Assembly (NCBI GenBank): GCA_000091165.1
Contig: FP565575.1
Coordinates: 2,010,001-2,042,000 of the forward strand
DNA from: Candidatus Methylomirabilis oxygeniifera
GTDB lineage: Bacteria > Methylomirabilota > Methylomirabilia > Methylomirabilales > Methylomirabilaceae
Reading direction: 5' to 3'
DNA: 32,000 nt
Shown here: piece after piece, positions 4,018-31,285 of the stretch
Layout: every line of letters starts with the position of its first letter
Numbering within the stretch: position 1 is the first letter of the stretch
Program-made: the position numbers and the translations under genes
Notes under the pieces: model-generated
Told to the model about the DNA's origin: nothing
The model's input: the letters and a program-made list of their open reading frames with translations, nothing else
Database searches by the model: none

Positions 4018-4117
4018 CCTAACTAAGCCCGGGGCCATCGCGGAGGGTCTCGATCAGACGGGGATTCGAGGGCGGAAAGGCCAAGAAGGGGCGAGGGGGA
4101 AGGAGGGAGGTAGGGTC

Positions 4118-8090: not shown

Positions 8091-8176
<86 letters not shown>

Positions 8177-8287
8177 CGGTATATCTGTAGTGTCGCGATC
8201 GACAGTCCCCTTGACATCTTCGTACATCGCAATCGATTGTTCAGGTTATGCAATGGCACCGAAGGCGGCGCCCGAAACATCATCCGG

Positions 8288-14452: not shown

Positions 14453-15357
14453 GACCCCAAAAGGTGCCGAAGCGCGCCTTCGAGATCAGGGCAGCGAAAC
14501 TCATATCCTGTGGTCAGCAGCCGAGTGGGCTGGACGCGCTGACTGGCCAACAGGACTTCGTCGGCCATCTCACCAAACGCCAGATGTGCGGCGGCGGCAG
14601 GCACCGGAAACAGAGTGAACCGGCCGAGAACCCGTCCCAATGCCCGCGTGAATTCCCGGTTGGTGACCGGATTCGGCGTGACCGTATTCACCGGACCCTG
14701 GAGCGCCTCAATCGTCAGTACGTGCGCAATGACACCTAGGAGGTCGTCCAAGGCGATCCAACTTATATATTGGTTCCCCGTCCCCAGTACCCCGCCGAGG
14801 CCCATCCTGAATGGCGGAAGCAGTTTCGCCAATGCCCCACCTGCTTCACTGGCCACCATCCCGAATCGGAGGTGAACGACGCGGATCCCTTTTTGGACAG
14901 CAGGCTCGGCCGCTGCCTCCCATTCGCGACAGACTCCAGCGAGGAAACCCGTTCCTGGGGTGCTTTCCTCCGTAAGGAGTTCATCGCCACGATCGCCGTA
15001 GTAGCCGGTAGCGGAGGCGCACACCAACACCTTTGGCGGTTGCTTCAGTCCTGCCAGCGCGTCGCAGAGCAACCTGGTGCCGTCTACCCGGCTGCTACGA
15101 ATCATCGCTTTCTTCTCAGCCGTCCACCTTCCGGTCGCGATGTTTTCTCCCGCAAGGTGGACGACCCCATCCAGGCCCTCCAGTCGAGCGACATCGATAA
15201 GTCCTGTCTCCGGGCTCCACTGGATCTCGTCTTTCCCTTGCCGCGGCGAGGTCCGCACCAGGCACGCGACACGATACCCGCCGGCTGCCAGGAACGGAAC
15301 GAGTGCCGACCCCACGAACCCGGTCGACCCTGTGACAAGGATGCGCAACGGTGTCAT
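14449..15357 (-). CDS. YfcH/SDR39U1-type epimerase-family protein (TIGR01777; NAD-binding domain plus DUF1731)
   Basis: 302 aa. ILVTGSTGFVGSALVPFL...VVHLAGENIATGRWTAEKKAMIRSSRVDGTRLL is characteristic of this family. Confidence 0.8.
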   Translation of the reverse strand: MTPLRILVTGSTGFVGSALVPFLAAGGYRVACLVRTSPRQGKDEIQWSPETGLIDVARLEGLDGVVHLAGENIATGRWTAEKKAMIRSSRVDGTRLLCDALAGLKQPPKVLVCASATGYYGDRGDELLTEESTPGTGFLAGVCREWEAAAEPAVQKGIRVVHLRFGMVASEAGGALAKLLPPFRMGLGGVLGTGNQYISWIALDDLLGVIAHVLTIEALQGPVNTVTPNPVTNREFTRALGRVLGRFTLFPVPAAAAHLAFGEMADEVLLASQRVQPTRLLTTGYEFRCPDLEGALRHLLGS

Positions 15358-15364
15358 AAGATAT

Positions 15365-15440
15365 GCTGTGAGCTTTCAGCGATCAGCGGCCAGCAAGTAA
15401 CCGCTTATGACCGACTGCTGATAGCTAATCACTGCCTGCT
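15365..15440. repeat. Intergenic inverted heptad-array repeat (TCAGCNN units, then GCTGANN units)
   Basis: gctgtgagctttcagcgatcagcggccagc ... gaccgactgctgatagctaatcactgcctgc. The two arms are imperfect reverse complements. Confidence 0.55.
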
Positions 15441-15445
15441 ATTGG

Positions 15446-16054
15446 TTAGGCCCCCGTGACGGGATCCCTGAGACTGAGCAAGAAGCCCATCGCAAAATAC
15501 TGCGCAACCCAGCCGATCACGCAGGCTCCCACCGCCCTCATCGTTGTCGTATAGCCGAGCGTCCTGCGCACGGCAACAACCATCGCTCCGAGCATCCAGA
15601 CCGATGCCAATCCGACGACAAAACCGCCAAGGCTGGGGATGACGCGTACCTCATAGGTTCCAAGATAGAAGGCACGATCCTGAAGTCCAAAAGCAATACC
15701 ACCGAGCCATGGGATAACACCCAACAGCCTGATGATTCCCGGGGCGCTGGCAAAACTGATCAGCCGCACTACCCCGCCCACGTCGGTTCTGGTCTGCGGC
15801 TCCTGGAGCAATCGCGTGCCCACCACGCAGGTAAACAACGCCCAGATATACCACTCCAGCATCGCCTGTAATGTTTTGAGAAAGAAGTCTCCGATCCCGG
15901 TCTGAAGGATGACACCGATCCCGGCCGCGATAGCCGACAGGATCACTACGAGCGCGGCTTGCATCGGCGCTCGCCGATCGCCCTGAATCTCCTCATAGAG
16001 ACTTTCATCCAGTCTGGCAGCCCGAATCATCCGCTCACCCAGCCCCTTAATCAC
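15446..16054 (-). CDS. Yip1-domain integral membrane protein
   Basis: 202 aa. The N-terminus RLDESLYEEIQGDRRAPMQAALVVILSAIAAGIG is followed by 4-5 TM helices, the usual Yip1-family layout. Confidence 0.65.
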   Translation of the reverse strand: MIKGLGERMIRAARLDESLYEEIQGDRRAPMQAALVVILSAIAAGIGVILQTGIGDFFLKTLQAMLEWYIWALFTCVVGTRLLQEPQTRTDVGGVVRLISFASAPGIIRLLGVIPWLGGIAFGLQDRAFYLGTYEVRVIPSLGGFVVGLASVWMLGAMVVAVRRTLGYTTTMRAVGACVIGWVAQYFAMGFLLSLRDPVTGA

Positions 16055-16091
16055 CGTTCCTCCTTCGCACCGTTACACGTTTTTAGAAAAT

Positions 16092-16184
16092 AGCGTTCAG
16101 CAATCAGCGCTCAGCCGTCAGCCCCGGATAAGGTAGAAGATGTCTCAGAAACAGCTGACCGCTGAACGCTGACTGCTGACCGCT
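16092..16184. repeat. Long imperfect hairpin built from heptad arrays
   Basis: The arm gcgttcagcaatcagcgctcagccgtcagc (left arm, 16092-16123) matches the reverse complement of gctgaccgctgaacgctgactgctgaccgc (right arm, 16152-16184) at about 26 of 30 positions. The loop is about 28 nt. The element lies between the PEP-utilising gene stop and the Yip1 gene start. Confidence 0.7.
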
Positions 16185-16294
16185 TTTACCATCAAAGCTA
16201 TGGTATCTGACTCTGGGTGTCAACTGTTTTCAGGAGGCAGGGAGGCGTTCGCGGGTGGGCTACAGTGAGGAACAAAAGGGTGCAGCTTCAGGAT

Positions 16295-18859
16295 CTACGA
16301 TCCTTCAGGGGAGGTCGGGCCTTTCAGCAGGGAGACCTTTCCACTGCTACCATCTATCCTGACTTGGCCCTTATCCGGGAGCAGCAACGAGGCATGTTCC
16401 AATATGACAGCAGGGATTCCACTTTCACGGGCCAGACACGCGCCGTGGGCAAGGATGCCGCCGGTCTCCATTACCAGTCCGGCCGCCCCCTTGATGTGAA
16501 GATACATGCCGAGACTCACTGCCGGAACGACGATGACGTCATGGGCCTGGAGGCTATTCCCGTTGCTCAGTGAGTCGAGCGTATCGGGGTCGATAATTCG
16601 AACTCTCCCCACCGCTTCACCGGACGAGACGGGGACGGCTTGAAATTCCTGCGCAGTCTCAAGCCGTGGCGGCCTGCCGATCTCCTCAAGCGAGCTCTCG
16701 AAGATGACCCCGGGCATCCACTTGCGCTTGGAGAACAACAGTGCAATCTCCCGCTCTTCGCGTCTGACCCGCATCTTTTCTCGCGCCGGCGTCAGATCGC
16801 TGAGCAATTCCGACAGCTCACCCGGAAACAGATAGAAGATCTCATCACGCTGAAGCGTAAGCTTTTGGCTCAATACTATCAACGCTCGCCGAATAAGGGC
16901 GTACTCCGCGACCAGGTAATACTTGATCGTCTCGCGGAGCGGCAGATATCGTCTGGCATATGTCAGCTCCGTAAATAGCGTCTGGATATCGAGCTGACTC
17001 GCGCCGAACTGCACCATTCGGCTCCGAACCTCTGCCTCAGCCTGCTCTCGGCATTCTACCTGCTGACGCGATTCGGCAATCGGACGATAAGGCGCAGCCA
17101 TGGCCTTCCTGAGTAACCGTTCGAGGCTCAGGGGGTCGTCAGCCATGCGAGGCATCGCAATCTCCAGTTCGTTCTGGGCAAGATGACCATACGTCGCAAG
17201 AAACTCCTCACGCGATATCTGCTGTTGCGCAAGCCTTGACAGGTCGAATCCTTCCTGACCGATCTTACTTGACTGCAGCCCATGCAGCAGTTGCTCAATC
17301 AGCCCATCGGCCTCGCCACCACACCACACGGGCAATTGCTGCTTCACCCGTTCGGTAAAGAAGAAACCAAGCCTTGCTGCAATCACGAAGTGTACGGCAG
17401 TGTACTGCTTCAGGTGATTCAGGTAGCCCCAGATCTTTACGACGATCTCTGCACATGACAGGCCTGTAAGGGCAACCGATCGCTCCCGAGCCAAGTAGCG
17501 CCGCAGTCCAGGCTCTATCACGTCAGAGAATTGTGTGTAGGACGCCTTCCCCCACCTCATCATCCCGCTTAGGAATTCGAGGAAGCGGTCATGGTACTTC
17601 CGACCCTCATCCGGTCCGAATCTTCTCACAGCCTCATCGAGGGTCAACCCCTGCTGATAGAGCCCGAGCTCCGGATAGTTGGCCAGGCGCGGATCAGCCT
17701 TTACCCGGTCCAGGTACGCCGCGATATCGAGAGGAAAGCCGACCTGGAACGTCTTCGCATCCAGCTCAAGGTTAAAGTAGGGGTGCCCACAGATCAGCTC
17801 GAACAGCCCTTCGGAGGTCTCGTCGCCGAGCGCATACCCAAGCCGTCGGCGGCCAAGCTGGATGCCGCCCTCGTCGCTGAAGATCGATGTGAAGATTCCG
17901 AAGCTCATCGGTGTAGGCGTAGGCAGGATCTCGGCGATATTGCCGTCGCTATAGACCGCCTCGCCGCAGGTGAGCGTCCCTTGTCGCCTTAACTCGGCGA
18001 TCCTGCCGCGCAAACGATCGATCTCTTTCTGCCGGTACTGTGCAGCCTTCTGCTCGTACGAGTCGCCGGCCGCCGAGATGGGCCTGGTCTGCAGGATATG
18101 CATCCGCCGTCCCGCAATGGCAAACTCGATATCCTGGGGGTGGCCGAAGAGCGCCTCCAGCGCGATACCGGCATCAACAAGCTCGCGGAGCTGGGTCGGC
18201 GTAAGCGTTGTGCCCTTTTCGGCGTTTCTCGTCTCCAGTACTCGGCCCTCTCTGCTCACGTGGAATGTGTCGCCCGACACCAGGCCAGACACCAGCGGCT
18301 CGCCAAGACCGAACACTGCATTGACGACGCACTCATCCTGGCTGAAGGTCACCGGGTTCAGGGTGTAGATCACACCCGAGACCTCGGCATCCACCATCTC
18401 CTGGACGATAACAGCCATGCCTCGTCGGCTGCCGTTCTCCTCCAGGCCCACCTGCCGCCTGTACAAGGTAGTGCGTGGCGCCGTCATGGAGCGCACACAC
18501 TCGGCCACAGCGTGGATCAGTTCCACCTCGGAGGCAACATTGACGCACGTCGTGTAGATACCGGCAAAGCTGGCGTGGCGGAGGTCCTCCAGGGTCGCCG
18601 AGCTTCGCACCGCCACCCGCTGAAACCCCCTCGCCCGATAAGCCGTGATAATCGCTGTCTGCAACCGCTCGTCGAGCTCGATCGCCTCACCGGACGATCG
18701 GATCGCTTCTTCGCAGGCGTCGGCAGGGATGACGAACCCTCTCGGCACCGGGAAGCCGGCCCGCATCATCAGACCCAGGTGCAGCGCCTTCCGTCCGACA
18801 CGGGCCAGATCACCCTCCCGGACATCCTGAAGATCGATGATACGGAACTGCTCCGTCAT
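16295..18859 (-). CDS. PEP-utilising enzyme with PEP synthase / rifampicin-phosphotransferase-like architecture: N-terminal PPDK_N ATP-grasp domain, a large central domain, and a C-terminal swivelling phospho-His domain
   Basis: 854 aa. The N-terminus is VGRKALHLGLMMRAGFPVPRGFVI...VAVRSSATLEDL...GMAVIVQEMV...DIEFAI...ILQTRPI. The C-terminus is GLVMETGGILAHGACLARESGIPAVI, with the catalytic His codon at 16445-16447. Its ATG lies 5 nt after the stop of the upstream U32 gene. Confidence 0.85.
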   Translation of the reverse strand: MTEQFRIIDLQDVREGDLARVGRKALHLGLMMRAGFPVPRGFVIPADACEEAIRSSGEAIELDERLQTAIITAYRARGFQRVAVRSSATLEDLRHASFAGIYTTCVNVASEVELIHAVAECVRSMTAPRTTLYRRQVGLEENGSRRGMAVIVQEMVDAEVSGVIYTLNPVTFSQDECVVNAVFGLGEPLVSGLVSGDTFHVSREGRVLETRNAEKGTTLTPTQLRELVDAGIALEALFGHPQDIEFAIAGRRMHILQTRPISAAGDSYEQKAAQYRQKEIDRLRGRIAELRRQGTLTCGEAVYSDGNIAEILPTPTPMSFGIFTSIFSDEGGIQLGRRRLGYALGDETSEGLFELICGHPYFNLELDAKTFQVGFPLDIAAYLDRVKADPRLANYPELGLYQQGLTLDEAVRRFGPDEGRKYHDRFLEFLSGMMRWGKASYTQFSDVIEPGLRRYLARERSVALTGLSCAEIVVKIWGYLNHLKQYTAVHFVIAARLGFFFTERVKQQLPVWCGGEADGLIEQLLHGLQSSKIGQEGFDLSRLAQQQISREEFLATYGHLAQNELEIAMPRMADDPLSLERLLRKAMAAPYRPIAESRQQVECREQAEAEVRSRMVQFGASQLDIQTLFTELTYARRYLPLRETIKYYLVAEYALIRRALIVLSQKLTLQRDEIFYLFPGELSELLSDLTPAREKMRVRREEREIALLFSKRKWMPGVIFESSLEEIGRPPRLETAQEFQAVPVSSGEAVGRVRIIDPDTLDSLSNGNSLQAHDVIVVPAVSLGMYLHIKGAAGLVMETGGILAHGACLARESGIPAVILEHASLLLPDKGQVRIDGSSGKVSLLKGPTSPEGS

Positions 18860-18864
18860 GTTTG

Positions 18865-19833
18865 TCAGACGGCTGATTGTTCAGCCCGCCAGATACGGAA
18901 GCGGTCGCGTTGGACCCGCTCCACCTTCCACCGATATTTCAACTCCTCCCATTCCGGAACAAAATGTTCCACCACGGCAGGGTTCGGGGAAGCCAGGACC
19001 TCGTCGAGGACCTTTCGGTAAAACCTGGTGATATCCCGCATCACCCCATCCGGATGCTCCCGCCCGGGGATCTTCAGATAATCGACCCCCGCCTGGATAT
19101 AGTCCGGCAGTTCGTGAAGGACGAGGGATGGACTGCTTTTGAGGCCTACCCGCTTCGCGGCGGAATCATCCGTGCGGTCGATATCCCATCCCGCCTGGCA
19201 GACACGATGGCAGCTTCCGCCGCGATTGGCGCTCCCAAAGCAATGATCTTTTCCCTCGGAATCGATCCATCGATCAAAACGGAGGTAGGGGCTCATCGTG
19301 CATCGGCCGGGGCAGATAATCCCTTCCTGAAGCGACGTAAAAAGGAAGACCTCGATGCCGACCGGCACGTCCGCCTTGATCGCGCGGATCTGATCGACCT
19401 CGACGCCCCATCGATAGGAGAGGATGACAACATCCGCGCCGATCTGCTGATAGAATCGTACATCCTCCCGATTGCAGACCGCACACGTCACACTGGCATG
19501 AATATCGACGCCAGGGAAGCGGCGGTGCAGTTGCCTGATACAGCCGATATCGTTGAGGATGAAACTTGACAGGCCCCAGCCGATATACTGCTCGACCTTG
19601 TGATAAAAGAGGTCGATCTCCTGCGGACCGGGCAGGCTGTTCATCGCAACCTTGACCTCCTGCCCCCTGCTCCGCGCGAACTCGTGAATCTCCCGGATCT
19701 CCTCATCCTGAAGCTCATCCTCAGGAGGTCTCCGGCTCCACCCCGCCGGGCCCACGTAGACGGCATCGGCGCCGGCTTCCAACACGGCGATCGCCATCGC
19801 CTGTGTGCCTCCTGGAGCCATCAATTTCACCAT
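18865..19833 (-). CDS. U32-family Fe-S protein, UbiU-like paralogue 3
   Basis: The start is trimmed to the ATG at 19833 (RBS GAGGAAGGAAACGATC). It begins MVKLMAPGGTQAMAIAVLEAGADAVYVG and contains LKIPGRE. The four conserved Cys are IICPGRC and GGSCHRVC (nt 19208-19314). By eye it is about 50% identical to the proteins at 22108-23064 and 21113-22108. Confidence 0.85.
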   Translation of the reverse strand: MVKLMAPGGTQAMAIAVLEAGADAVYVGPAGWSRRPPEDELQDEEIREIHEFARSRGQEVKVAMNSLPGPQEIDLFYHKVEQYIGWGLSSFILNDIGCIRQLHRRFPGVDIHASVTCAVCNREDVRFYQQIGADVVILSYRWGVEVDQIRAIKADVPVGIEVFLFTSLQEGIICPGRCTMSPYLRFDRWIDSEGKDHCFGSANRGGSCHRVCQAGWDIDRTDDSAAKRVGLKSSPSLVLHELPDYIQAGVDYLKIPGREHPDGVMRDITRFYRKVLDEVLASPNPAVVEHFVPEWEELKYRWKVERVQRDRFRIWRAEQSAV

Positions 19834-19856
19834 GATCGTTTCCTTCCTCAATTATT

Positions 19857-20047
19857 GCGTTCAGCAGTCAGCCGTCGGCGTCAGACAACCCCCTGACCCC
19901 CTTTCAAAAAGGGGGGGGACTCCTGATACACTTCCCTGTCTCCCCTTTTTGCTAAAGGGGGATATGTCTATGTTTCCTTACCTCCCCTTTCGTAAAGGGG
20001 GATTGGGGGAATTTTCGTACGCCCTGGCGCTGCGGCGCTTCAGGGCT
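19857..20047. repeat. Composite intergenic repeat: a heptad array plus three CCCCTTT-loop-AAAGGGG hairpins and a terminal GC hairpin
   Basis: Array gcgttcagcagtcagccgtcggcgtcag (19857-19884). Hairpins lie at 19897-19915 (cccccttt caa aaaggggg), 19941-19962 and 19984-20000 (ccccttt cgt aaagggg). ccctggcgc...gcgcttcaggg lies at 20022-20045. The whole element sits inside the U32 cluster. Confidence 0.7.
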
Positions 20048-21005
20048 ACTCTATAAACTCTGCAGCAAAGGTCCCTGGAGGCAACCGGTCGATGCCGAGG
20101 AGCGGCCCTCCCCCCACCTTCAGGAGTTCGTCGAAAAGACGCTCAATCTGCCGGACGGTTGAGCCATCCCAAGCGGTCATCACCCGTCGCCGCCAGCTAT
20201 CGCGAAGGATCGTCAGAATTCTGAGATCGATCCCACCCATGACCTGTTCACCTATCTCAGCCCAGATCTCATCGTTCGCCTTTAGGTAGTCGGCGGTATC
20301 GCAAAACGCACGAACGAAACCGCGCAGCAGTTCGGGGTTCCGCTTGGCAAACTCATCAGTGACGGTAAAAAGGGTAATTGGGACAGCGCCGTCGATTCCG
20401 AGGTCTGCAATCAGGTCGAGCACATCCACGACCCGGCGGTACGCCCCAGTCGCCACCAGGGGCGGGATCAACTGCCACCATTGCAACGCGGCATCGACCT
20501 GTCCGCTCTTTAACAAATCGGCCAGAGTCCCTTTAGAGAGCGCTTCGACAATCGTGTTCTCCTGTTGGGGATCAAAGCCAAACTGTTTCATGCACGCCGC
20601 CCTCAAAATAATCCAGTTCTTGTCGCGCAGCCGAACCACCCCGACGCGCTTCCCGTGAAGATCTTGCAGTCCGTTGATCGATGAGTCGGAAGGAACCACA
20701 AGTCCTCCCGCAATCCGTCCATAGGGGAAGAACGCCGTGACGGGTAGACCATCCGTCCGGTGGCGACCGATGACGATCCAATCGATGTCGATCAGATCGA
20801 CGGCCCCCTCTTTCAGGGCCACCTCAAACGATTGGAACGCGCCTGTGATCTGATCCCGAACCAGGGTAATCTGCAGGTCAAAGCCGTGCTTGGCATCAAG
20901 CTCCAGCTTCTTCATCGCATAGACGAACCAGCGGGGGCTCCCGGTCGGCTCAAAGGCCGCCCGCAGAACCGGTAGTCCGGTTGCGCCGTTATTCACAGCC
21001 ATCAT
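20046..21005 (-). CDS. SsuA/THI5 (NMT1)-like type-II periplasmic-binding-fold protein with no signal peptide and no transporter partner
   Basis: 319 aa. RBS AAGGAG lies 9 nt upstream of ATGATG. The N-terminus MMAVNNGATGLPVLRAAFEPTGSPRW has no hydrophobic leader or lipobox. The two-lobe binding-protein pattern shows in GAVDLIDIDW...GKRVGVV...SGQVDAAL. No permease or ATPase gene is present anywhere in the window. Confidence 0.6.
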   Translation of the reverse strand: MMAVNNGATGLPVLRAAFEPTGSPRWFVYAMKKLELDAKHGFDLQITLVRDQITGAFQSFEVALKEGAVDLIDIDWIVIGRHRTDGLPVTAFFPYGRIAGGLVVPSDSSINGLQDLHGKRVGVVRLRDKNWIILRAACMKQFGFDPQQENTIVEALSKGTLADLLKSGQVDAALQWWQLIPPLVATGAYRRVVDVLDLIADLGIDGAVPITLFTVTDEFAKRNPELLRGFVRAFCDTADYLKANDEIWAEIGEQVMGGIDLRILTILRDSWRRRVMTAWDGSTVRQIERLFDELLKVGGGPLLGIDRLPPGTFAAEFIE

Positions 21006-21027
21006 ACAGATTCACTCCTTGAAAAAC

Positions 21028-21125
21028 AGACTGAAGGCTGAAGGTAGACAGGCTAAACACTTGAGGCTAAAAGTAAGACTTTTTGACCTGAAAGCCTCCA
21101 GCCCAAGCCCCTTCAGCCTATCTGC
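21028..21125. repeat. Intergenic inverted heptad-array repeat (CTGAAGG-type units), starting at the stop codon of the upstream U32 gene
   Basis: Left arm agactgaaggctgaaggtagacaggctaaacacttgaggct. Right arm agcctccagcccaagccccttcagcctatctgcc is an imperfect reverse complement of it. The unit type is the same as at 307-466. Confidence 0.6.
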
Positions 21126-22108
21126 CTGGTGCTTCCCAGCAGCAGACCCGCCCGCCTGGTGCGCTCCATCGTCCACCGCTTTCTCAGCTCTTGCCATTCG
21201 GGAACATACGGCTCCAGCGACAGATCGGTCCCGGATGCCACGATCGCATCGATCAATCTCCGGTAAAACCGCGTAATGTCCTGCATCAACTCTTCTGACC
21301 GTTCCCGCCCCTGGATCTTCAAGTAATCGACCCCCGCCTCGACAAAACCCGGCAGCTCCCATAATTGGAGGAAGGGATCGTTGCGCAACGTACTCTTGCC
21401 ATCGAACTCTCCGTCGGACCCCGCCACGTCCCATCCTCCCTGACAGACCCGCGAGCAGCCCCTGGCGCCGCGATTGGCGGAGCCGATGACCTCATCATCT
21501 GCGCCATCCGACCACTCCTTATAGACGAGGTAGCTGCTCATAATGCACTTACCCGGACAGACGATCCCGAGCGGCATCGGCTGAAAGAGAAAGATCTCTA
21601 CGTTCATGCCGACCTCTGTCTTGATCGCCTTCACCTCATCAGGCTGTAGTCGGTACGGCAGGATGATGCAGCTTCCCCCGAGCGTTTTGTAGAAGTAGAT
21701 ATCCTGGCGGTTGGTCACGGCGCTCCCGATGCTGACATGGATGTCGATCGTAGGAAATTGGCGCCGGACAGCGACGATACACCCGGGATCAGACAGGACG
21801 AACCCGGACACACCCCACCCCGCATACGCTTCGACCTTCTGCATCAGGCGCGGCATCTCGGTGGGGCCGGGCATGGCATTGAGGGCGACCTTGACCTCTC
21901 GCCCCATGGCGTTGGCCAATTCGCTCAGCTCCCTGATCTCCTCATCAACCAAATCCATCTGGGACGATCGGCGGCTCCACCCGCGGGCCCCGACATAGAC
22001 GGCGTCGGCGCCCTCGGCCAGCGCGTTACAGGCCATCCGCAGCGTCCCGCCGGGGGCGAGTAACTTCACCGTCTGCGTCACGGTATGCGCGCCTGTAGTC
22101 ATCGGCAT
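21113..22108 (-). CDS. U32-family Fe-S protein, UbiU-like paralogue 2
   Basis: The start is assigned to the ATG at 22106-22108, which shares one nt with the upstream TGA (TGATG). An internal GTG at 22069 is an alternative. Motifs: VKLLAPGGTLRMACNALAEGADAVYVG and LKIQGRERS. Conserved Cys: IVCPGKC and ARGCSRVC (nt 21443-21559). Confidence 0.8.
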   Translation of the reverse strand: MPMTTGAHTVTQTVKLLAPGGTLRMACNALAEGADAVYVGARGWSRRSSQMDLVDEEIRELSELANAMGREVKVALNAMPGPTEMPRLMQKVEAYAGWGVSGFVLSDPGCIVAVRRQFPTIDIHVSIGSAVTNRQDIYFYKTLGGSCIILPYRLQPDEVKAIKTEVGMNVEIFLFQPMPLGIVCPGKCIMSSYLVYKEWSDGADDEVIGSANRGARGCSRVCQGGWDVAGSDGEFDGKSTLRNDPFLQLWELPGFVEAGVDYLKIQGRERSEELMQDITRFYRRLIDAIVASGTDLSLEPYVPEWQELRKRWTMERTRRAGLLLGSTRQIG

Positions 22109-23064
22109 CAGGCCTTCGCCCGCGCAACGAGACGGTCGTCTCGCCGCCTCCGCTCGCTCGCCCACCGCTTCTTCAACTCCTGCAACTCGGACACATAATG
22201 GGCCGTCACCTCATCGGTCGGAAAAATCTGTAAATCGTCGACAACCTTCCGGTAGAAGCTGACGATATCCCGGACCAGATCATCGGACCGATCCCTCCCC
22301 GGCACTTTGAAGTAGTCCACGCCCGCCTGAATATAGTCGGACAGCTCCTGCAGCCAGAGCAACGGGTTGCCTTTCAGGCCGAACTTTCCGTCGATCTCTC
22401 GGTCATCGGCCGTCGCCTCCCACCCGACCTGGCAGACCCGCAGGCAATCACCGCCCCGGTTCGCGCTGCCGTAAAAGTAATCCTTCCCCTCGTTATCGAG
22501 CCACCGGTTGGAGCTGAAGTAACTGCTCATCGTACACTTGCCCGGACAGACGATCCCATCCAGATTCTCGGTCCTGAACAGGAAGACCTCCAGGCCCACA
22601 TCCAGGGATTGCTTGATGGCCCGGACGTCTTCGATCCCCATCCGGTACGGCAGGATGACGACGCTGGCCCCCAGCTCGTGGTAAAACTTCACCTCAAGGG
22701 CGTTGCTCAGTCCGGCTCCAACGCTGACATGGATCGTGATGTCAGGGAAGTGGGATCGCACCTGAACCATGGAACCGATGTCGCTGATCATGAACCCGGT
22801 GACGCCCCACCCGGTATACATGTCCACCTTCTTCAGGAGGAGCGGGACCTCTTCCGAGCTGGGCATCGTGTTTAGCACAACCCTCACATGCTTACCCTGA
22901 GCGCGCGCCGCAGCGCAGAGCTCCCGGACCTCTGCGTCGGTCAGTTCAGTGTCGGAACCCCTTCGACTCCATCCCCTGACGCCGACATAGACCGTATCGG
23001 CCCCCGCCTCCAGAACTGAGAAAGCCATCGTCCGCGTTCCGCCAGGCGCCATCAGCTTCGCCAT
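22108..23064 (-). CDS. U32-family Fe-S protein, UbiU-like paralogue 1
   Basis: 318 aa. RBS GGGGAGGGG. Motifs: MAKLMAPGGTRTMAFSVLEAGADTVYVG and FKVPGRDRS. Conserved Cys C173-X3-C177-X29-C207-X3-C211 (nt 22432-22548). Confidence 0.85.
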   Translation of the reverse strand: MAKLMAPGGTRTMAFSVLEAGADTVYVGVRGWSRRGSDTELTDAEVRELCAAARAQGKHVRVVLNTMPSSEEVPLLLKKVDMYTGWGVTGFMISDIGSMVQVRSHFPDITIHVSVGAGLSNALEVKFYHELGASVVILPYRMGIEDVRAIKQSLDVGLEVFLFRTENLDGIVCPGKCTMSSYFSSNRWLDNEGKDYFYGSANRGGDCLRVCQVGWEATADDREIDGKFGLKGNPLLWLQELSDYIQAGVDYFKVPGRDRSDDLVRDIVSFYRKVVDDLQIFPTDEVTAHYVSELQELKKRWASERRRRDDRLVARAKA

Positions 23065-23089
23065 TGGTTACCCCTCCCCACGCCCTTCG

Positions 23090-24010
23090 TCACGCAATCG
23101 GAGACAGCGCCTGAGGGCTGAGATATTCCTGCCCGGACACGCCGAAATAAAATCCATTGCAGAGTCCGCTATGCGACACCGATCTCAACTGATCCAGCCA
23201 CGGCTCAGCGGCACACTCCTCGCCGGACTGAGCCTTGTGGAGCGCCTCCCGGTAGACGCGTCCTGCCGTTTCGACGTAGGCGCCCGTTTCCCCAAGCGTA
23301 TAGATGTAGAACAGGTTGAGGTCGCTCTGGACCAGGCGATCCAGATACTCGAGCATGCACAGATCCTTGCCGCTCAGGTTTGCCCTGCCGATGCTCTTGA
23401 GCTCCCACTCTTCATGGGTCAGCCAGTGTCCCTGGGAGCAGCTCTCTTCGCAATGGAGCGGCACCTGACCGGTGTAGTCAGTCACGAAGCAGGTCCCCGA
23501 AATCGCCAGCGGGATCTTGCCGTGCAGAGGGACAATCACCTGAACGGGCGAGTGATCCCGAATATAGATCAGCTCTTCCAGGCTCAGTTCAGCGTTCGGA
23601 AAGACCCGTTCCACCCCATACGCCTGGAGTACCCGCGCGGTCTCGTGCGTGTAGAGGTTGCCGAAGACCCCAAGATGGATCGGGATATCACCAAGGATCT
23701 CGCGCACCATCCCCAACAGGCCCATATTGTGGACCTCGACACCGTCAAGGGGCAGCCCGCGGACACCCTGGAGCAGCTCCTTAATCCAAACCAGGTCGCT
23801 GTCCTTCGGAATAGCGTATGTGCTCAGATAGCACTTCTTTCCCATCGACTTGATCCGCTCCACCCCCGAGACAAGCGTCTCGATATTTCGGGAGAAGTTA
23901 CCGGGATAGAGGGGGCAGGTATAGTCACCCAGGTAGAGTGCATCGTATGCAGACAGATCGATCTCGTGCAACTGCTTGGGTCCGGGAATATGCGTGGATA
24001 ATTCAAACAT
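23090..24010 (-). CDS. U32-family Fe-S protein, UbiV-like
   Basis: The start is trimmed to the ATG at 24010 (RBS GGTGGAGG). 306 aa. Blocks resemble E. coli YhbV/UbiV as I recall it: ALYLGDYTCPLY (Cys32), CYLSTYAI, GKIPLAISGTCFVTDYTGQVPLHCEESC (C-X12-C-X3-C, nt 23448-23501), and a C-terminal CNGFY. Confidence 0.75.
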   Translation of the reverse strand: MFELSTHIPGPKQLHEIDLSAYDALYLGDYTCPLYPGNFSRNIETLVSGVERIKSMGKKCYLSTYAIPKDSDLVWIKELLQGVRGLPLDGVEVHNMGLLGMVREILGDIPIHLGVFGNLYTHETARVLQAYGVERVFPNAELSLEELIYIRDHSPVQVIVPLHGKIPLAISGTCFVTDYTGQVPLHCEESCSQGHWLTHEEWELKSIGRANLSGKDLCMLEYLDRLVQSDLNLFYIYTLGETGAYVETAGRVYREALHKAQSGEECAAEPWLDQLRSVSHSGLCNGFYFGVSGQEYLSPQALSPIA

Positions 24011-24378
24011 CTCAGCCTCCACCGTCGTTTGAGAATGAGTAGCGAGCAGGACTATTGTCCAAAAGGGATTGGAGATATTGCACATCGAGTGCCAACCGCT
24101 CTCGGGACTAGTGATGTAAGTTGCTGATTCTTATGATGGTGACTGGCGAAGATCAGGAGTGTTGGCAGACTAATTCAGCGGGACAAGACGAGCAGTGGGG
24201 CAAACGCCCCAACGTGGGTGATCTGCCCCATCTCATGCGTGCTGCGCCATGAAGAGATACCGGCGCTTATTTCAACCTGTCAGTTAGGCGCGTTGAAACG
24301 GTTTCGAGGTACGCCTATCTGGAGTCCTGGGGAATCTGTAGCAGCCCATGGGGGCTAAGATTGTAAGCTCGTTCACGC

Positions 24379-24705
24379 TTACGGTGTGATCGCGACACCA
24401 TACGTCAGGACATACGCAGCGAAACTGGCGGGTTCAGGCTGGTGCAGCGAGCGCGCGGAAAAGAAATGGAGCTTGATATCATCGCCTGCCTTCTCTTGTA
24501 CCAGGGCTGCGGTGTGCGCGCGGGTCGCAAGGTCCCACGATTCGAGGTCCTCCAGAAAGACCGCGAGATCGATGTCGCCCGATTCATCGGCGCCTTCTTC
24601 CACCCACGAACCAAACAGGTAGGCCGCCGCTACCGGGGTATAGCGGGACAGCAGCTCCAGTGCGTACTGAGCGCGGTGTTTGATCACAGCGTCGATGTCA
24701 GCCAT
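24379..24705 (-). CDS. Nucleotidyltransferase-domain protein (MNT-type, antitoxin-like)
   Basis: The start is trimmed to the ATG at 24705 (RBS AAGGGGGTGG), which removes an overlap with hisC. 108 aa. The Pol-beta NTase motif is LFGSWVEEGADESGDIDLAVF. Confidence 0.7.
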   Translation of the reverse strand: MADIDAVIKHRAQYALELLSRYTPVAAAYLFGSWVEEGADESGDIDLAVFLEDLESWDLATRAHTAALVQEKAGDDIKLHFFSARSLHQPEPASFAAYVLTYGVAITP

Positions 24706-24760
24706 CACACCACCCCCTTCGTTTTCTTTACTACCCCAAAGAGGGCTGCCTGTAAGAAGT

Positions 24761-25867
24761 TCAGTGAGTCGCAAGGACCTCGCGAAGAGCGGCGACAAAT
24801 CGCTCATTCTCATGAAAGGCGCCGATGGTGACCCTCAGGGACGTCCGGAGCCCATATCGGGCTAGAGAACAGACGGCCACTCGTTTCTCCGCCAAGACTC
24901 GAACAACCTGGTCGACATCCCGTTCGACATCGACAAGGATGAAGTTTGCCGCCGTCGGTACGTAGCGTACTCTCAGCTTCTCAAAAGCCTGGTAGAGATA
25001 CTGCTTGCCATCCTCATTAAGGCGCTTCGAGCCGACGAGGTGCGCCTCATCATCGAGGGCAGCCACGGCGGCTGCGCCGGCTAAGACGTTGACGTTGAAC
25101 GGCTGCCTCGCCTTATCAATGAGCGCAACACAATCGGGCGGGGCGATCGCGTACCCGATCCGCAGCCCCGACAACCCGTAAATCTTGGAGAAGCTCCGCA
25201 ATGCGATCACCGAGCGGCCCTCCCGCACGTAGCGCACGGCGTCAGGCTGAAGCTCGTCGGGGAGATACTCACGATATGCCTCGTCGAGAAGAACGATGAC
25301 CCTTTCCGGGAGCGCCTCGATAAAGGCGGCGATGTCATGGGGCGGGACACAGCTTCCTGTCGGATTGTTCGGGTTGCTGATAAAGACCATCCTGGTCCGC
25401 AGCGTAATCTGTTGAGCCATGGCCTGAAGATCATGGCGAAACGCTTTCAATGGAACTGCGGCTCGTTGGCTTCCCGCAGCCTGAACCACCCGGCCGTAGA
25501 AGGCGAAGGCGGGATCGCCAACGATAGCCTCTGCGTCAGGACCGAGGAAGCACCGCGCGCACAGATCGATCAGCTCACTACTGCCGTTCCCCAGCGCAAT
25601 ATGCGCCGGTGACAGCCCGAGTCGCGCGGCCAATCGCTCCTTGAGATCGTGTCCCTGACAATCGGGGTACCGGTTGAGACCGTGCAGCAGACCCTGTATC
25701 GCCTTGACCGCCAGCGGTGACGGTCCCAGGGGATTTTCGTTGTAGTCGAGTTTGACCCACTCCTCACTCGCCGGCCTCTTTCCAGTTTCATCAAATGGCC
25801 TACTATGGCGGTAAGGGGGCAGCCGCTTCAGGTGTGGAGAAGCCGCCTCTTCAAAGTCGGAAGGCAT
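24761..25867 (-). CDS. hisC: Histidinol-phosphate aminotransferase (class II PLP aminotransferase)
   Basis: 368 aa. Motifs: LDYNENPLGPSP, FISNPNNPTG, and the PLP-lysine motif SFSKIYGLSGLRIGY. Confidence 0.8.
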   Translation of the reverse strand: MPSDFEEAASPHLKRLPPYRHSRPFDETGKRPASEEWVKLDYNENPLGPSPLAVKAIQGLLHGLNRYPDCQGHDLKERLAARLGLSPAHIALGNGSSELIDLCARCFLGPDAEAIVGDPAFAFYGRVVQAAGSQRAAVPLKAFRHDLQAMAQQITLRTRMVFISNPNNPTGSCVPPHDIAAFIEALPERVIVLLDEAYREYLPDELQPDAVRYVREGRSVIALRSFSKIYGLSGLRIGYAIAPPDCVALIDKARQPFNVNVLAGAAAVAALDDEAHLVGSKRLNEDGKQYLYQAFEKLRVRYVPTAANFILVDVERDVDQVVRVLAEKRVAVCSLARYGLRTSLRVTIGAFHENERFVAALREVLATH

Positions 25868-25881
25868 GATCCGGAATGGGA

Positions 25882-26577
25882 CTAGAAATGTTTGTAGCGG
25901 TAGGCCACCGCCACGGCCTCGAGCTTGGTGTGGAGGCCGAGTTTGACGAGGATCTTCTGGGTATGGTTGCGGGCGGTGGTAGTGCTGATTTGAAGCGCTT
26001 TCGCAATCCCCTTGGCAGTCTCGCCGCGGGCGATGAACCGGAGAACCTCCTGCTCTCTAGGCGTTAATGTCTTTAAGGGAGAGGCGCTCTCCGAGGTCGT
26101 CATTGCACCGCCATCCGAGAGGGTCCCTTCGCTTCCCAGCAGGGACTGGACCTTGCCGAGCAGGACCTCGGTCTCTACCTGCCGGGTGACGTCGTGAAAG
26201 ATGTGCACCATGGTGAAGAGGCTCGGAGAACCGGAGGGGACGACGATGGTGCTGACGTGGAGCCAGAGGGGGCGCCCCGTCTTGGTGTGGATCATGATCT
26301 CGCGCCCCTCAACCGGCTCCTCTTTCCTGGCTGAGGTGATCGGGGTACAATTCTCTCCGCACAGCCGGCACCCTGTTCGATTTCTGACAGCCCACACCTC
26401 GGAGCAGGGCTTTCCCAAAACCTCTGCCGCCGTAAACCCCACCAGGCGTTCAGCCGCCTTGTTCCACAGGGTGATCATGTGGTCTTGATCGACGCCGAGC
26501 GCTCCGTCTGCCGTATTTGAAAAGATCTCAGCAAGCGAACTTGTCGCCGGGTACGCCGTATCCATTATCTGTGCCAT
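25882..26577 (-). CDS. One-component regulator: Cys-rich PAS domain plus a LuxR/FixJ-type HTH
   Basis: ATG at 26577 with AAGGTG upstream; the track's GTG at 26589 is an alternative. PAS segment: GVDQDHMITLWNKAAERLVGFTAAEVLGKPCSEV. C-terminal HTH: LTPREQEVLRFIARGETAKGIAKALQISTTTARNHTQKILVKLG. Confidence 0.8.
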   Translation of the reverse strand: MAQIMDTAYPATSSLAEIFSNTADGALGVDQDHMITLWNKAAERLVGFTAAEVLGKPCSEVWAVRNRTGCRLCGENCTPITSARKEEPVEGREIMIHTKTGRPLWLHVSTIVVPSGSPSLFTMVHIFHDVTRQVETEVLLGKVQSLLGSEGTLSDGGAMTTSESASPLKTLTPREQEVLRFIARGETAKGIAKALQISTTTARNHTQKILVKLGLHTKLEAVAVAYRYKHF

Positions 26578-26673
26578 GCGGTTGTACACACCTTACATTA
26601 GGAAAAGACTATACTCAGGAAGATACCTGAGACCGCCAAAAAAATCAAGGGAAGCAATGAACTGTAACGTTGG

Positions 26674-27039
26674 TCATTCTTTGAGCAGCATCGGCTCCTC
26701 TTGCGCCTCTTGGTTATCGGCTGTAGGGCCCTTATGCATCTGATCAGGCCGCAGATCAGAGATATCCATCGTCGAATTCTCCGCCGCTTTGCCTTGAGAA
26801 GGACCAAGTGGCGTCAACCTCTCGAAATCCAGTAAGACGCGGTCCGCATCCGGCTCGGTTGCGTGCTCGACGGCCCGTTGTACCCTGCGCTTCGTGATCC
26901 GCCCAATGAGTACGCCGAGTAGAAATGCGACAAGGATGATCCCGGCTAGCTGAAGCGCCGGTACTGAAACTGATGCAACCCTTAGAAAGTCGATGAAGGC
27001 GAAGAGCAGATCGAGTGCGCTTTCAATGATCGCCCACAT
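26674..27039 (-). CDS. Small membrane protein with one or two N-terminal TM helices and an acidic, disordered tail; hypothetical
   Basis: 121 aa. The TM segment is LQLAGIILVAFLLGVLIGRITKRR. I recognise no family motif. Confidence 0.45.
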   Translation of the reverse strand: MWAIIESALDLLFAFIDFLRVASVSVPALQLAGIILVAFLLGVLIGRITKRRVQRAVEHATEPDADRVLLDFERLTPLGPSQGKAAENSTMDISDLRPDQMHKGPTADNQEAQEEPMLLKE

Positions 27040-29369: not shown

Positions 29370-30383
29370 TTAGCCGGAGCGGACAGGACCGCCGAACGCC
29401 TCAGCGGCCTGTTGATAGATGACCTCCGAGCGCTCCTGATATCGTTGAGAAAAATGGAAGATGACCAGCTCCTTCGCATGAGCCTCGCGAGCAAGCAGTC
29501 CGGCCTGCCGCGCCGTCAGGTGGTGTCGCTCGGTCGCGTAATCCCGATCCTGCTCCAGGTACATCGCTTCACAAAACAGAAGGTCGGCGTCCCGCGCCAG
29601 GGCGACGATCTTCTGCCGATTCTCGTCGGAGTACAATGTGTCCGTAATGTAGACCAGCCGCTGCCCGTTGGTGATCGTAACAATCTGATCCCGCAGATCA
29701 CCGAGCCGCCATTCCTGGAATACCATACCGGTCTCGCTCCTGCACGGAGCTCGAACGACTGCATCGTCCGGTGCGCCTGCGCGGACCAGCCGCTTGAATT
29801 CGGTCAGCCAGGGCCCGGTCGCAAGACCGAGACGCTGCAGTCGTTCGGGGTCGATATTGATCCGCTCCATTTCGATCAGCGCAAAGGCAAGACACGGGAT
29901 CTTGTGATCGAGGTGAACCGCTTCGATCCGGAACAGCGGATCGTCGACCAGCACCCCGGTAAACGGTAAAGATGGCGACAGATCGATCCGCTCGAAGCGA
30001 GCGCCACATGGAAAGCGGGCCGCGGTGATCTTGTCAGAACTGACCTCGTAAACGTCGAATGTGAGCGTGTACCCCTCGACCAAGTTCCAGATGTAGCCGG
30101 CGAGTTTCCCTTCAACGTTCGCGATGATGCCGGGAGGCCCAAACAGCCGGATCGTCTGGTTGCGACCGAGAACGATCCGCAACAGGTGATCGAAGCCGAT
30201 GAAGTGATCGATATGAGTGTGGGAGATGAAGATGTCGGCGACCTTCAACAGCTCGGCAGGCGGCTGCGTCGTCAGGTCACCAAGATCCAGCAGAATGGCG
30301 CGCCGTTCCCACCTGAGCCTCACAAAGAGGCCGGGATCGCCGAACACCCCATTGAGGAGCCTTGGTTGAAAGAGATTGGTCAT
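29370..30383 (-). CDS. MBL-fold metallohydrolase, RNase Z/ElaC-like
   Basis: 337 aa. The HxHxDH motif appears as ISHTHIDHFIGF. The overall beta-lactamase-fold pattern is present. Confidence 0.7.
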   Translation of the reverse strand: MTNLFQPRLLNGVFGDPGLFVRLRWERRAILLDLGDLTTQPPAELLKVADIFISHTHIDHFIGFDHLLRIVLGRNQTIRLFGPPGIIANVEGKLAGYIWNLVEGYTLTFDVYEVSSDKITAARFPCGARFERIDLSPSLPFTGVLVDDPLFRIEAVHLDHKIPCLAFALIEMERINIDPERLQRLGLATGPWLTEFKRLVRAGAPDDAVVRAPCRSETGMVFQEWRLGDLRDQIVTITNGQRLVYITDTLYSDENRQKIVALARDADLLFCEAMYLEQDRDYATERHHLTARQAGLLAREAHAKELVIFHFSQRYQERSEVIYQQAAEAFGGPVRSG

Positions 30384-30608: not shown

Positions 30609-30839
30609 ATGGAGAAACCGATGACTTCGATCAAGCTCTCTTCAAAAAACCAGATCGTCCTTCCCAAAGAAGCGCGCGAGGCAATGAGGGTCAAAGGAGG
30701 GGATGAGATCATAGTAGTCGTCAAAGGAGGGATCACCCTTCTGCTGCCCAAACCCAAAAGCTATACAAAAGCCCTTGCAGGAAAGGGGCGCGGACTGTAT
30801 CCTTCCGATTATTTGACCAAGGAACGCCGCGCGTGGTAA
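30609..30839 (+). CDS. vapB: AbrB/MazE/SpoVT-family antitoxin (VapB-type)
   Basis: 76 aa. The swapped-hairpin motif is KLSSKNQIVLPKEAREAMRVKGGDEIIV. The gene overlaps the downstream PIN gene by 7 nt. Confidence 0.8.
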   Translation: MEKPMTSIKLSSKNQIVLPKEAREAMRVKGGDEIIVVVKGGITLLLPKPKSYTKALAGKGRGLYPSDYLTKERRAW

Positions 30840-31285
30840 GTGCCCAGCACCTCGAGGGCTTCCTGCGAAGGCACCCCGTAGTTGGACTGGATTCAAATCT
30901 GCTGATCTACCTTATCGAGGAACACCCGGAGTACCATCGATTGACTGAGAAGGTATTCGGATCAATTGAAGCGGGACGCAATACGGGGGTTTGCTCCACA
31001 CTCTCCCTTCTTGAGGTCCTGGTCCAACCCTACCGAGAGAGCAATGACGAACTCGTCGATCAGTTCTATGCCCTCCTCACCACCTATCCTCACATCCGAT
31101 GGATCGACTTATCGATCGGGATCGCCGATCTGGGCGCCCAACTTCGCGCCAAATACCAATTGAAAACACCCGATGCCATCCTGGCGGCGACCTCTATCGA
31201 GGCCGGCGCCACCGGTTTCATAGGGAACGACAGCCAGCTCAAACGGATTTCTGAGTTGGATATTCTGATTTTAAGCGGCGATTAG
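30833..31285 (+). CDS. vapC: PIN-domain ribonuclease toxin (VapC-type)
   Basis: 150 aa with a GVG-overlapping GTG start. PIN acidic residues appear in VGLDSNLLIY, SLLEVL, TPDAILAATS and IGND. Confidence 0.8.
   Translation: MVSAQHLEGFLRRHPVVGLDSNLLIYLIEEHPEYHRLTEKVFGSIEAGRNTGVCSTLSLLEVLVQPYRESNDELVDQFYALLTTYPHIRWIDLSIGIADLGAQLRAKYQLKTPDAILAATSIEAGATGFIGNDSQLKRISELDILILSGD

Follow-up and report, generated by a model that had tools for sequence, protein, structure and literature searches.

A conserved gene cluster for U32 proteins, a leaderless PqqT-like binding protein and an RPH-like phosphotransferase in Candidatus Methylomirabilis oxyfera: a candidate for oxygen-independent synthesis of PQQ or a related aromatic compound

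Gene content of the U32 locus

The window analysed here is a stretch of 32,000 nucleotides from Candidatus Methylomirabilis oxyfera (M. oxygeniifera in the record of assembly GCA_000091165.1; contig FP565575.1, positions 2,010,001 to 2,042,000), and coordinates given without a locus identifier are positions within it. It contains a minus-strand cluster encoding four U32 proteins, one UbiV-like (V) and three UbiU-like (U1, U2 and U3), together with a leaderless binding protein (N), a phosphotransferase (P) and an aminotransferase (AT). This seven-gene set recurs across bacterial phyla and is a candidate for an O2-independent pathway that may yield pyrroloquinoline quinone (PQQ) or a related aromatic compound. 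The open reading frames (ORFs) and spacers of the unit are as follows.

25882..26589, minus strand: PAS-LuxR (GerE) transcription regulator, with NCBIfam PAS and LuxR-type helix-turn-helix matches
24761..25867, minus strand: AT, HisC-family, phenylalanine-aminotransferase-like pyridoxal phosphate aminotransferase (TIGR01141; nearest structure 4R2N)
24379..24813, minus strand: MntA-like nucleotidyltransferase, a small 144-aa ORF between AT and V
23090..24010, minus strand: V, UbiV-like U32 protein, putatively [4Fe-4S], 306 aa (Peptidase_U32, E 6e-31)
22108..23064, minus strand: U1, UbiU-like U32 protein 1, 318 aa, orthogroup 1 (Pfam Peptidase_U32)
21113..22108, minus strand: U2, UbiU-like U32 protein 2, 331 aa (Pfam Peptidase_U32)
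21006..21112: U2-N spacer, 107 nt, with an interspersed CAGCCTTCAG-type repeat
20046..21005, minus strand: N, leaderless binding protein assigned to the PqqT family, 319 aa (NMT1; profile search and Foldseek)
19834..20045: N-U3 spacer, 212 nt, with three tandem palindromic hairpins
18865..19833, minus strand: U3, UbiU-like U32 protein 3, 322 aa (Pfam Peptidase_U32)
16295..18859, minus strand: P, rifampicin phosphotransferase (RPH)-like, putative ATP-dependent phosphotransferase, 854 aa (PPDK_N, PEP-utilizers)

The original prediction had described six linked genes on the minus strand, V to P, and both the genes and their spacing are confirmed by coordinates and Pfam domains: V and U1 lie 25 nt apart, the U2 start and the U1 stop overlap by one base (TGATG) and P begins 5 nt after U3. 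V starts at MFELS, in agreement with its orthologues, and the longer ORF from 24085 is unnecessary. For U3 the true start codon is an ATG at 19833 (MVKLMAPGG), and a TTG at 19851 was discarded. The sequences of P, N, U1 and V agree fully with those of CBE69404, CBE69406, CBE69408 and CBE69409, respectively. In public annotation the U32 proteins are named 'U32 family peptidase', N 'ABC transporter substrate-binding protein' and P 'phosphoenolpyruvate synthase'.

All six genes stand, but the unit is larger. It begins upstream of 24010, and the conserved AT and, in NC10, the PAS-LuxR regulator belong to it; in most genomes a DSP phosphatase, an FAH-family protein and an SDR are to be added. The PAS-LuxR family is also found directly upstream of the cluster in loci L001, L007 and L045 (loci from other genomes are given by such identifiers throughout), and the protein is probably a local regulator of the NC10 operons. 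The MntA-like nucleotidyltransferase, which is of toxin-antitoxin type, was rejected as a pathway member and is treated as an insertion, since its homologue in a close Methylomirabilis relative lies in reversed orientation (L045 5833-6159). The gap before V is 368 nt, and the AT-V interval looks like an insertion hotspot. A promoter and terminator scan of 15300-27000 was uninformative, promoter-like sites being fewer than in shuffled sequences and terminators not in excess.

Two repeat elements had been pointed out in the spacers, and set against chance expectation both are real. The N-U3 spacer carries three palindromic CCCCTTT..AAAGGGG hairpins at 19898-20000 with a spacing of ~43 nt, each site matched on both strands (6 matches, 0 expected by chance). 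Within the window this CCCCTTT-loop-AAAGGGG motif occurs only in the N-U3 spacer; at the corresponding junction of other genomes N and U3 are directly adjacent or share bases. The CAGCCTTCAG-type element has 14 matches in the window against 2.3 expected; these are mostly intergenic and include 21031-21040 in the U2-N spacer. Short interspersed repeats resembling repetitive extragenic palindromes, of the CAGCCTTCAG / GCGTTCAGC..TCAGC type, lie at 313-329, 452-461, 14428, 16112-16171, 19857-19880 and 21031-21040.

Conservation and host range

A homology search with U1 returned paralogue triplets on single contigs, and the same genes were found side by side in an NC10 metagenome-assembled genome (MAG), in the methanotroph (PMC9371685) Methylovirgula sp. 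HY1, in a Motiliproteus MAG and in a 'Deltaproteobacteria' MAG. A scan with an N profile, covering one genome per species, gave 35 loci, from which removal of duplicates and of contigs cut short left 28 distinct loci. All seven core genes (AT, V, three U, N and P) were present in 28/28 of these loci, all of which have enough sequence, and the same seven-gene set was found on four further contigs. The 28 loci come from NC10, Acidobacteriota, Alpha-, Beta- and Gammaproteobacteria and a 'delta' MAG lineage. A check of neighbourhood conservation had been proposed for the module, and its outcome is a gene set kept across phyla. Among the hosts are Methylomirabilota, an Acidobacteriota MAG, Rhodoblastus acidophilus (two strains), many soil Alphaproteobacteria, Aromatoleum tolulyticum, A. 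diolicum, A. toluolicum, Azoarcus, Novimethylophilus, Motiliproteus, Neptunomonas and Thiorhodococcus minor.

The gene order is AT-U-V-U-N-U-P outside NC10 and V-U-U-N-U-P in NC10, where AT lies upstream or downstream. Neighbouring genes frequently overlap (the U and N reading frames by 19 nt in L002 and by 8 nt in L004), which suggests co-translation. It had also been noted that no ubi, mqn or SCP2 genes are adjacent, and none is found among the annotated ORFs of this window. This does not hold for every locus, however: in three alphaproteobacterial ones (L002, L017 and L038) the operon has an SCP2/UbiT-like gene no more than 10 kb away, and two of the three have ubiD: L002 (1-3183) also has ubiD, ubiX and a U32 gene, and L017 (495-4486) has ubiD and an upstream U32 gene. 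The surroundings of L002, L017 and L038 hint at an island of anaerobic cofactor-synthesis genes.

The U32 proteins

All four U32 proteins match Peptidase_U32 (PF01136) at E 1.6e-28 to 9e-33, and none of the four matches U32_C (PF16325) in Pfam. V is 27% identical to E. coli UbiV, whilst U1 is 24% identical to E. coli UbiU and U1-U3 together span 24-28%. The earlier split into one UbiV-like and three UbiU-like proteins is borne out by their cysteine patterns. In V and its orthologues the UbiV cluster cysteines C39, C180, C193 and C197 are all invariant, and the U proteins without exception have counterparts of UbiU C169, C176 and C232. UbiU C193 falls in a segment that the U proteins have lost, and a near-invariant Cys four residues before C232 takes its place (CxxxC, 'DCLRVC').

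Orthology to U32 proteins of known function was assessed with curated NCBIfam equivalog models. The UbiU scores are 111-120 bits (U1 117) against a cut-off of 440, V scores 68 bits against the UbiV cut-off of 275, and with the TrhP model, whose cut-off is 534, the proteins reach 94-111 bits. Together with a long branch from E. coli UbiU in a neighbour-joining tree of 92 U-like proteins, these cut-offs rule out UbiU, UbiV and TrhP orthology, including the unrelated role of TrhP against which the four proteins were to be checked. By sequence, V and U1-U3 are placed in a separate U32 subfamily that is not UbiU, UbiV, TrhP or RlhA. In the tree, the proteins of Proteobacteria and Acidobacteriota form three UbiU-like orthogroups that exactly match gene position 1, 2 or 3; NC10 U1 falls in group 1, and NC10 U2 and U3 pair together. 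That orthogroups follow gene position points to three distinct functions kept over a long time, which fits the earlier proposal that the three paralogues differ in function. The U32 family is tied to O2-independent, prephenate-dependent hydroxylation, which gives phenylpyruvate (PMC10990095).

Were these genes neighbours by chance, the U32 proteins would be separate TrhP- or RlhA-like RNA hydroxylases, or peptidases, lying next to unrelated genes. The pipeline names ('peptidase', 'substrate-binding protein' and 'phosphoenolpyruvate synthase') would be in keeping with this, and the promoter and terminator scan does not speak against it. However, the seven-gene set is kept in order across at least five phyla or classes, which effectively refutes such an explanation; moreover, gene overlaps suggest co-translation, scores are far below the TrhP cut-off and U32_C is absent. 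We find chance adjacency hardly credible.

The binding protein N

When a profile built from N orthologues was run against every solved structure, the best matches were PqqT entries (9B1U, 9B1V and 9OOZ; E 2e-35), and the next family, THI5, reached only 1e-5. An AlphaFold (AF2) model of N (predicted local distance difference test, pLDDT, 92.8) gave the same ranking in Foldseek: PqqT 9OOZ, 9B1V and 9B1U came first at E 3e-26 and Thi5 next at E 4e-15, eleven orders of magnitude behind. Superposed on PqqT, the model has TM-scores of 0.87 and 0.93, a root-mean-square deviation of 1.9 A and 29% identity. With PqqT far closer in both searches, N was rejected as a THI5-like synthase of hydroxymethylpyrimidine phosphate and as a sulfonate binder.

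PqqT is a periplasmic PQQ-binding protein of Methylorubrum extorquens AM1 with a dissociation constant (Kd) of ~60 nM; it contacts PQQ through T41, the G112 amide, K142, N143 and Y188 (stacking), and K142 occupies the place of the dehydrogenases' metal ion (PMC11331073). Across ~35 N orthologues these positions hold Ser or Thr, Gly, Lys, Asn and mostly Tyr, Phe or Trp (Pro in some Alphaproteobacteria), and the DKNW motif, which corresponds to PqqT D141-K142-N143-W144, is kept in nearly all intact orthologues. The stacking position of M. oxyfera N is Trp, the same residue as in the PqqT Y161W variant that was crystallised with PQQ (9OOZ). As a control for this signature, 1.84 billion representative proteins were searched; the family proved small, with 42 representatives at E <= 1e-30. 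Of the N-like leaderless proteins 14/14 have K142, as do 67/70 PqqT-like periplasmic proteins but only 10/40 other related binding proteins; for G112 the counts are 14/14, 68/70 and 11/40, respectively. The pocket signature therefore tracks PqqT-likeness and is not general to the fold.

No signal peptide was found in the N orthologues examined, whereas the PqqT-like genes beside xoxJ in L005 and L042 encode a typical one. The neighbours of N are U32 genes, and ABC-transporter partners are absent. By profile and modelled fold, N is a cytoplasmic homologue of PqqT. Its predicted ligand is accordingly not a lipid but a soluble aromatic compound with several carboxyl groups, either PQQ or something like it. 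N had been described as an orphan SsuA/THI5-fold carrier analogous to UbiT. The leaderless binding protein stands, but it is more specifically a PqqT homologue, and the analogy with a lipid carrier has to be given up.

Relatives of N occur in other settings too. A paralogue, N2, is paired with a flavoprotein gene in L001 (1181-3765), L007 (2-1898), L010 (8343-10906) and L011 (6395-8958), just upstream of the U32 operon in L001 and L007, and in CSP1-5 the pair is found without U32 genes in a 20-kb locus. In Halopiger thermotolerans (L044 7094-10006) there are three tandem NMT1-fold genes with a cupin and a glyoxalase nearby and no U32 gene, and the middle gene product is leaderless and 46% identical to N.

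Phosphotransferase, aminotransferase and companion enzymes

P contains PPDK_N (ATP-grasp; 6e-57) and PEP-utilizers (4e-11) domains in Pfam, and its orthologues also match Rph_4th. Its nearest solved structures are those of Listeria RPH (5FBS and 5HV1, E 2e-54), and its swivel-domain His motif, GGILAHGACLARESGIP, conforms to GG[ILV]LAH.AC.ARE.GIP, which is kept in all full-length orthologues. The earlier reading of the enzyme as RPH-like is upheld by this catalytic motif and by the structural matches. P was, however, rejected as an Rph, phosphoenolpyruvate-synthase or PigC/RedH orthologue, its scores being far below the equivalog cut-offs (241 vs 999 bits for Rph, NF041857; 161 vs 1700 for NF000283; 208 vs 1300 for PigC). 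We regard P as a putative small-molecule phosphotransferase or activating enzyme.

AT scores above the HisC cut-off of TIGR01141 (303 vs 276.6 bits), its nearest structure is the putative phenylalanine aminotransferase 4R2N (E 5e-56), ahead of HisC entries, and it is 38-58% identical to the ATs of other clusters. Because the proposed U32 mechanism releases phenylpyruvate from prephenate (PMC10990095), AT may turn this phenylpyruvate into phenylalanine; alternatively, it may supply or aminate an aromatic 2-oxo acid.

Loci were annotated with a codon-model gene caller trained per locus, which missed a small DSPc gene that was recovered by tblastn. A DSP-type phosphatase is thereby found just upstream of AT in ~18 loci, and a His_Phos_1 phosphatase lies near AT in one NC10 locus. 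The recurrence of two non-homologous phosphatases beside AT suggests that P makes a phosphorylated intermediate that is later dephosphorylated. In a Pfam census of 140 flank proteins, the commonest families include FAH (9), SDR (8) and aldehyde dehydrogenase (3), and the FAH-family companion is acylpyruvate-hydrolase-like, being closest to L-2,4-diketo-3-deoxyrhamnonate hydrolase.

Such companions could also belong to an inducible anaerobic catabolism or detoxification of an aromatic amino acid or related aromatic, running through transamination, O2-independent ring polyhydroxylation, phenylphosphate-synthase-like phosphorylation, SDR reduction and FAH C-C hydrolysis. The three flank families and the likeness of FAH to a 2,4-diketo-acid hydrolase would suit this, as would the LysR regulators inside or beside the cluster in alphaproteobacterial loci, the MFS transporter that adjoins it in Aromatoleum and Azoarcus loci, and the fact that several hosts, e.g. 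Aromatoleum, degrade aromatics anaerobically. However, if the U32 enzymes use prephenate then one would be spent per hydroxylation, an implausible cost for bulk flux, and catabolism is disfavoured on this account. Moreover, M. oxyfera, whose genome is small and which is specialised in oxidising methane, has the cluster too, neither ring-reducing nor CoA-ligase genes are conserved with the cluster, and N resembles a cofactor-binding protein. We therefore consider a catabolic role unlikely.

Links to PQQ biology

Two independent genomic adjacencies connect the operon with PQQ-dependent enzymes. In two related MAGs (L005 and L042), xoxF-xoxG-xoxJ, a PqqT-like gene and an ABC importer divergently adjoin it; a TonB-dependent receptor and a glutathione S-transferase (GST) gene follow the operon there (L005 19226-20978, L042 19281-20978). 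In an independent alphaproteobacterial lineage (L016 and L029), a few genes separate AT from a PQQ-dependent dehydrogenase gene upstream of it, and in L016 these include two for cytochromes c. Methylotroph or anaerobe hosts include Methylovirgula HY1, Rhodoblastus acidophilus, Novimethylophilus and Aromatoleum, and R. acidophilus grows anaerobically on methanol in the light via a PQQ methanol dehydrogenase. M. oxyfera itself uses a PQQ-dependent methanol dehydrogenase, yet pqq genes are reported to be absent from it; Wu et al. are said to have suggested in 2015 that it gets PQQ from community members. The PqqC step of canonical PQQ synthesis requires O2 (PMC11102522), and PQQ synthesis in anaerobic methylotrophs is an acknowledged open question (PMC12423496). 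A metallo-beta-lactamase gene 5 kb upstream (29370-30383) was considered as PqqB and rejected as RNase Z-like. A literature search linking U32 proteins with PQQ or with Aromatoleum returned nothing relevant.

A PqqT-like protein that is cytoplasmic, in a cluster that PqqT-type importer genes adjoin in L005 and L042, might also serve to handle PQQ in the cytoplasm and not to make it, whether by regeneration from amino-acid adducts or imported derivatives or by modification of imported PQQ. The suggested supply of PQQ to M. oxyfera by its community would suit this. Three hydroxylase paralogues, a kinase and a transaminase are, however, much machinery for salvage, and PQQ enzymes and PqqT are periplasmic, so that import into the cytoplasm would be an unexplained detour. 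Handling of this kind is, in our judgement, very improbable.

Interpretation of the operon

Taken together, these genes very probably form one conserved operon-like unit for an O2-independent, U32-based pathway acting on a soluble aromatic compound. Conservation and family assignments thus support the original prediction of an uncharacterised module that combines U32-hydroxylase-like proteins with a phosphotransferase. No characterised system explains the operon, and no description of it was found in the available literature.

As to the product, we suggest, with a probability of about 0.4, that it is PQQ, an immediate precursor or a close analogue, made independently of O2. Three things speak for this reading, namely the PqqT-like fold and pocket of N, the PQQ enzymes encoded beside the operon in two separate lineages, and the way of life of the hosts; the hydroxylase activity, the oxygen donor, the ligand, the order of steps and the product are inferred. 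In such a pathway V and the three U proteins would between them catalyse as many as three O2-free reactions, either regiospecific hydroxylations or two-electron oxidations, the oxygen atom probably being drawn from prephenate by analogy with UbiU-UbiV. N would hold a substrate, intermediate or product in the cytoplasm. P would phosphorylate a hydroxyl group, either to activate it for elimination or condensation or to protect it, and the phosphate would later be taken off by a phosphatase (DSP-type in Proteobacteria, His_Phos_1 in one NC10 locus). AT would feed in an aromatic 2-oxo or amino acid, or make phenylalanine from leftover phenylpyruvate. The unit would thereby replace the O2-requiring PqqB and PqqC chemistry and, in M. 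oxyfera, may provide a whole alternative route. That the operon is a complete PQQ pathway, needing neither precursor peptide nor O2, with the U32 proteins installing or oxidising the ring oxygens by means of prephenate and with P and the phosphatase driving condensation or aromatisation steps, is a doubtful extension of this idea.

Several observations weigh against PQQ as the product. Adjacency to PQQ enzymes is limited to 2 lineages and 4 distinct loci. A strict motif scan of all loci, translated in six frames, found no PqqA-like peptide, and PqqE-, PqqD- and PqqC-type families are not among the 25 commonest of the 140 flank proteins, although rare occurrences are possible; if PqqB and PqqC alone were bypassed, pqqADE neighbours would be expected at least sometimes. 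Hyphomicrobium, the classic anaerobic methanol user, is not among the matches, and a cluster of another kind is the candidate put forward for it (PMC12423496). For the hosts Aromatoleum, Motiliproteus and Thiorhodococcus no documentation of PQQ use came up. The kinase, phosphatase, SDR and FAH-type hydrolase are without an obvious place in known PQQ chemistry, and the LysR regulators and MFS transporters of some loci look catabolic. Lastly, the pocket signature of N is shared by the NC10 paralogue N2 (~55% identical), encoded directly after a fumarate-reductase/NadB-like flavoprotein gene, and DKNW is also present in leaderless haloarchaeal homologues that have no U32 neighbours, so the ligand could be a different aromatic carboxylate.

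It is thus a serious if tentative possibility that the same machinery makes some other hydroxylated (hetero)aromatic carboxylate. This might be an unknown cofactor, a chelator of metals or a lanthanophore, or a precursor of the ubiquinone head group such as 4-hydroxybenzoate made from tyrosine. The N-like pockets outside the cluster, in NC10 N2 beside its flavoprotein and in the haloarchaeal triple-NMT1 loci, are consistent with this, and the SCP2/UbiT-like gene within 10 kb in L002, L017 and L038, with ubiD and U32 genes in L002 and L017 and ubiX in L002, and the TonB-dependent receptor after the cluster in L005 and L042 point in the same direction. The trimming of aromatic side chains would be a fitting task for AT, SDR, aldehyde dehydrogenase and an acylpyruvate-hydrolase-like FAH, and pqq genes were not seen adjacent within the scope of the flank-family census and the PqqA scan. 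However, the closest characterised relative of N binds PQQ specifically with a Kd of ~60 nM, and N retains the residues by which it does so. A PqqT-type pocket is unlikely to suit a lipid substrate, and three retained hydroxylase orthogroups exceed the needs of 4-hydroxybenzoate synthesis. To our knowledge ubiquinone is confined to Pseudomonadota, whereas NC10 and Acidobacteriota carry the cluster, which counts against a ubiquinone precursor.

The case for PQQ matters because PQQ-dependent methanol and alcohol dehydrogenases work in anoxic habitats, yet the sole known PQQ pathway requires O2. The operon is a genetically defined and testable candidate for oxygen-free PQQ synthesis and, if this is true, would account for the supply of PQQ to the methanol dehydrogenases of M. 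oxyfera and other anaerobic methylotrophs. Whatever the product, it would be only the second case, after anaerobic ubiquinone synthesis, of U32 hydroxylases serving a metabolic route of several steps, and the first of three specialised UbiU-like paralogues with one shared UbiV-like partner. It would also broaden the reach of the recently discovered prephenate-dependent hydroxylation and, in hundreds of genomes, correct the labels 'peptidase', 'ABC transporter substrate-binding protein' and 'PEP synthase'.

Other features of the window

An orphan pmoC/amoC copy at 3158-3934 (plus strand) scores above both the AmoC and the PmoC equivalog cut-offs, and pmoA and pmoB are not beside it; its presence agrees with M. 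oxyfera as the source. It is followed at 3986-4897 (plus strand) by a gene for a secreted-looking protein of 303 aa with a Gly/His-rich N-terminal part and no family match. At 9099-11555 (plus strand) an 818-aa ORF, with a multi-pass membrane region and, by eye, a C-terminal J-domain-like segment, overlaps the end of a sugar-epimerase-like gene (8147-9316). A SagB-type dehydrogenase ORF of nitroreductase fold (31384-31827, minus strand) lies beside a 150-aa ORF (30833-31285, plus strand) that is PIN-like by eye and has no family match. Nitroreductase-family genes are also found near the operon in L002 and L041.

Comparison with known systems

The closest parallel is UbiU-UbiV-UbiT. In both systems UbiU-type and UbiV-type Peptidase_U32 proteins are encoded side by side, and all four UbiV ligand cysteines and three of the four UbiU positions are kept here; by analogy, both would join a multi-step, O2-free hydroxylation of an aromatic ring to an accessory binding protein. 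The operon differs in having three UbiU-like proteins per UbiV-like protein and in the relocation of the fourth UbiU cysteine. Its accessory protein has the predicted PqqT fold of a soluble-ligand binder, whereas UbiT is an SCP2 lipid carrier. It also adds a kinase, an aminotransferase and a phosphatase, and occurs in phyla not known for ubiquinone. TrhP and RlhA share with the operon proteins the U32 catalytic domain and the proposed prephenate-dependent chemistry, but the latter are shorter, without U32_C and below the TrhP cut-off.

N is like PqqT in its modelled fold and in its contact residues (D-K-N-W, Gly, Ser/Thr and, in most orthologues, an aromatic stacking residue). Unlike PqqT, it has neither signal peptide nor ABC partners and is encoded between U32 genes, often in overlapping frames; binding of PQQ by N is a prediction. 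P resembles RPH and PigC/RedH in its ATP-grasp PPDK_N domain, its substrate domain (Rph_4th) and its swivelling His domain with the conserved His, but falls below both cut-offs and is found outside any rifamycin or prodiginine context.

With PqqABCDE(F) the operon would share an end product only if the proposal of PQQ synthesis holds. By the PqqA scan and the flank-family census it has no parts homologous to that system and, whilst the canonical route requires O2, U32 chemistry could supply without it the hydroxylations and the multi-electron oxidation that the Tyr-derived ring requires. For Hyphomicrobium denitrificans a pqqAED-puuD-serC-pyrD cluster has been put forward as a means of making PQQ anaerobically, as a hypothesis only (PMC12423496). 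That cluster addresses the same open problem and likewise includes an aminotransferase, but it is without U32, PqqT-like or RPH-like genes, and its gene content is entirely different from that of the U32 operon.

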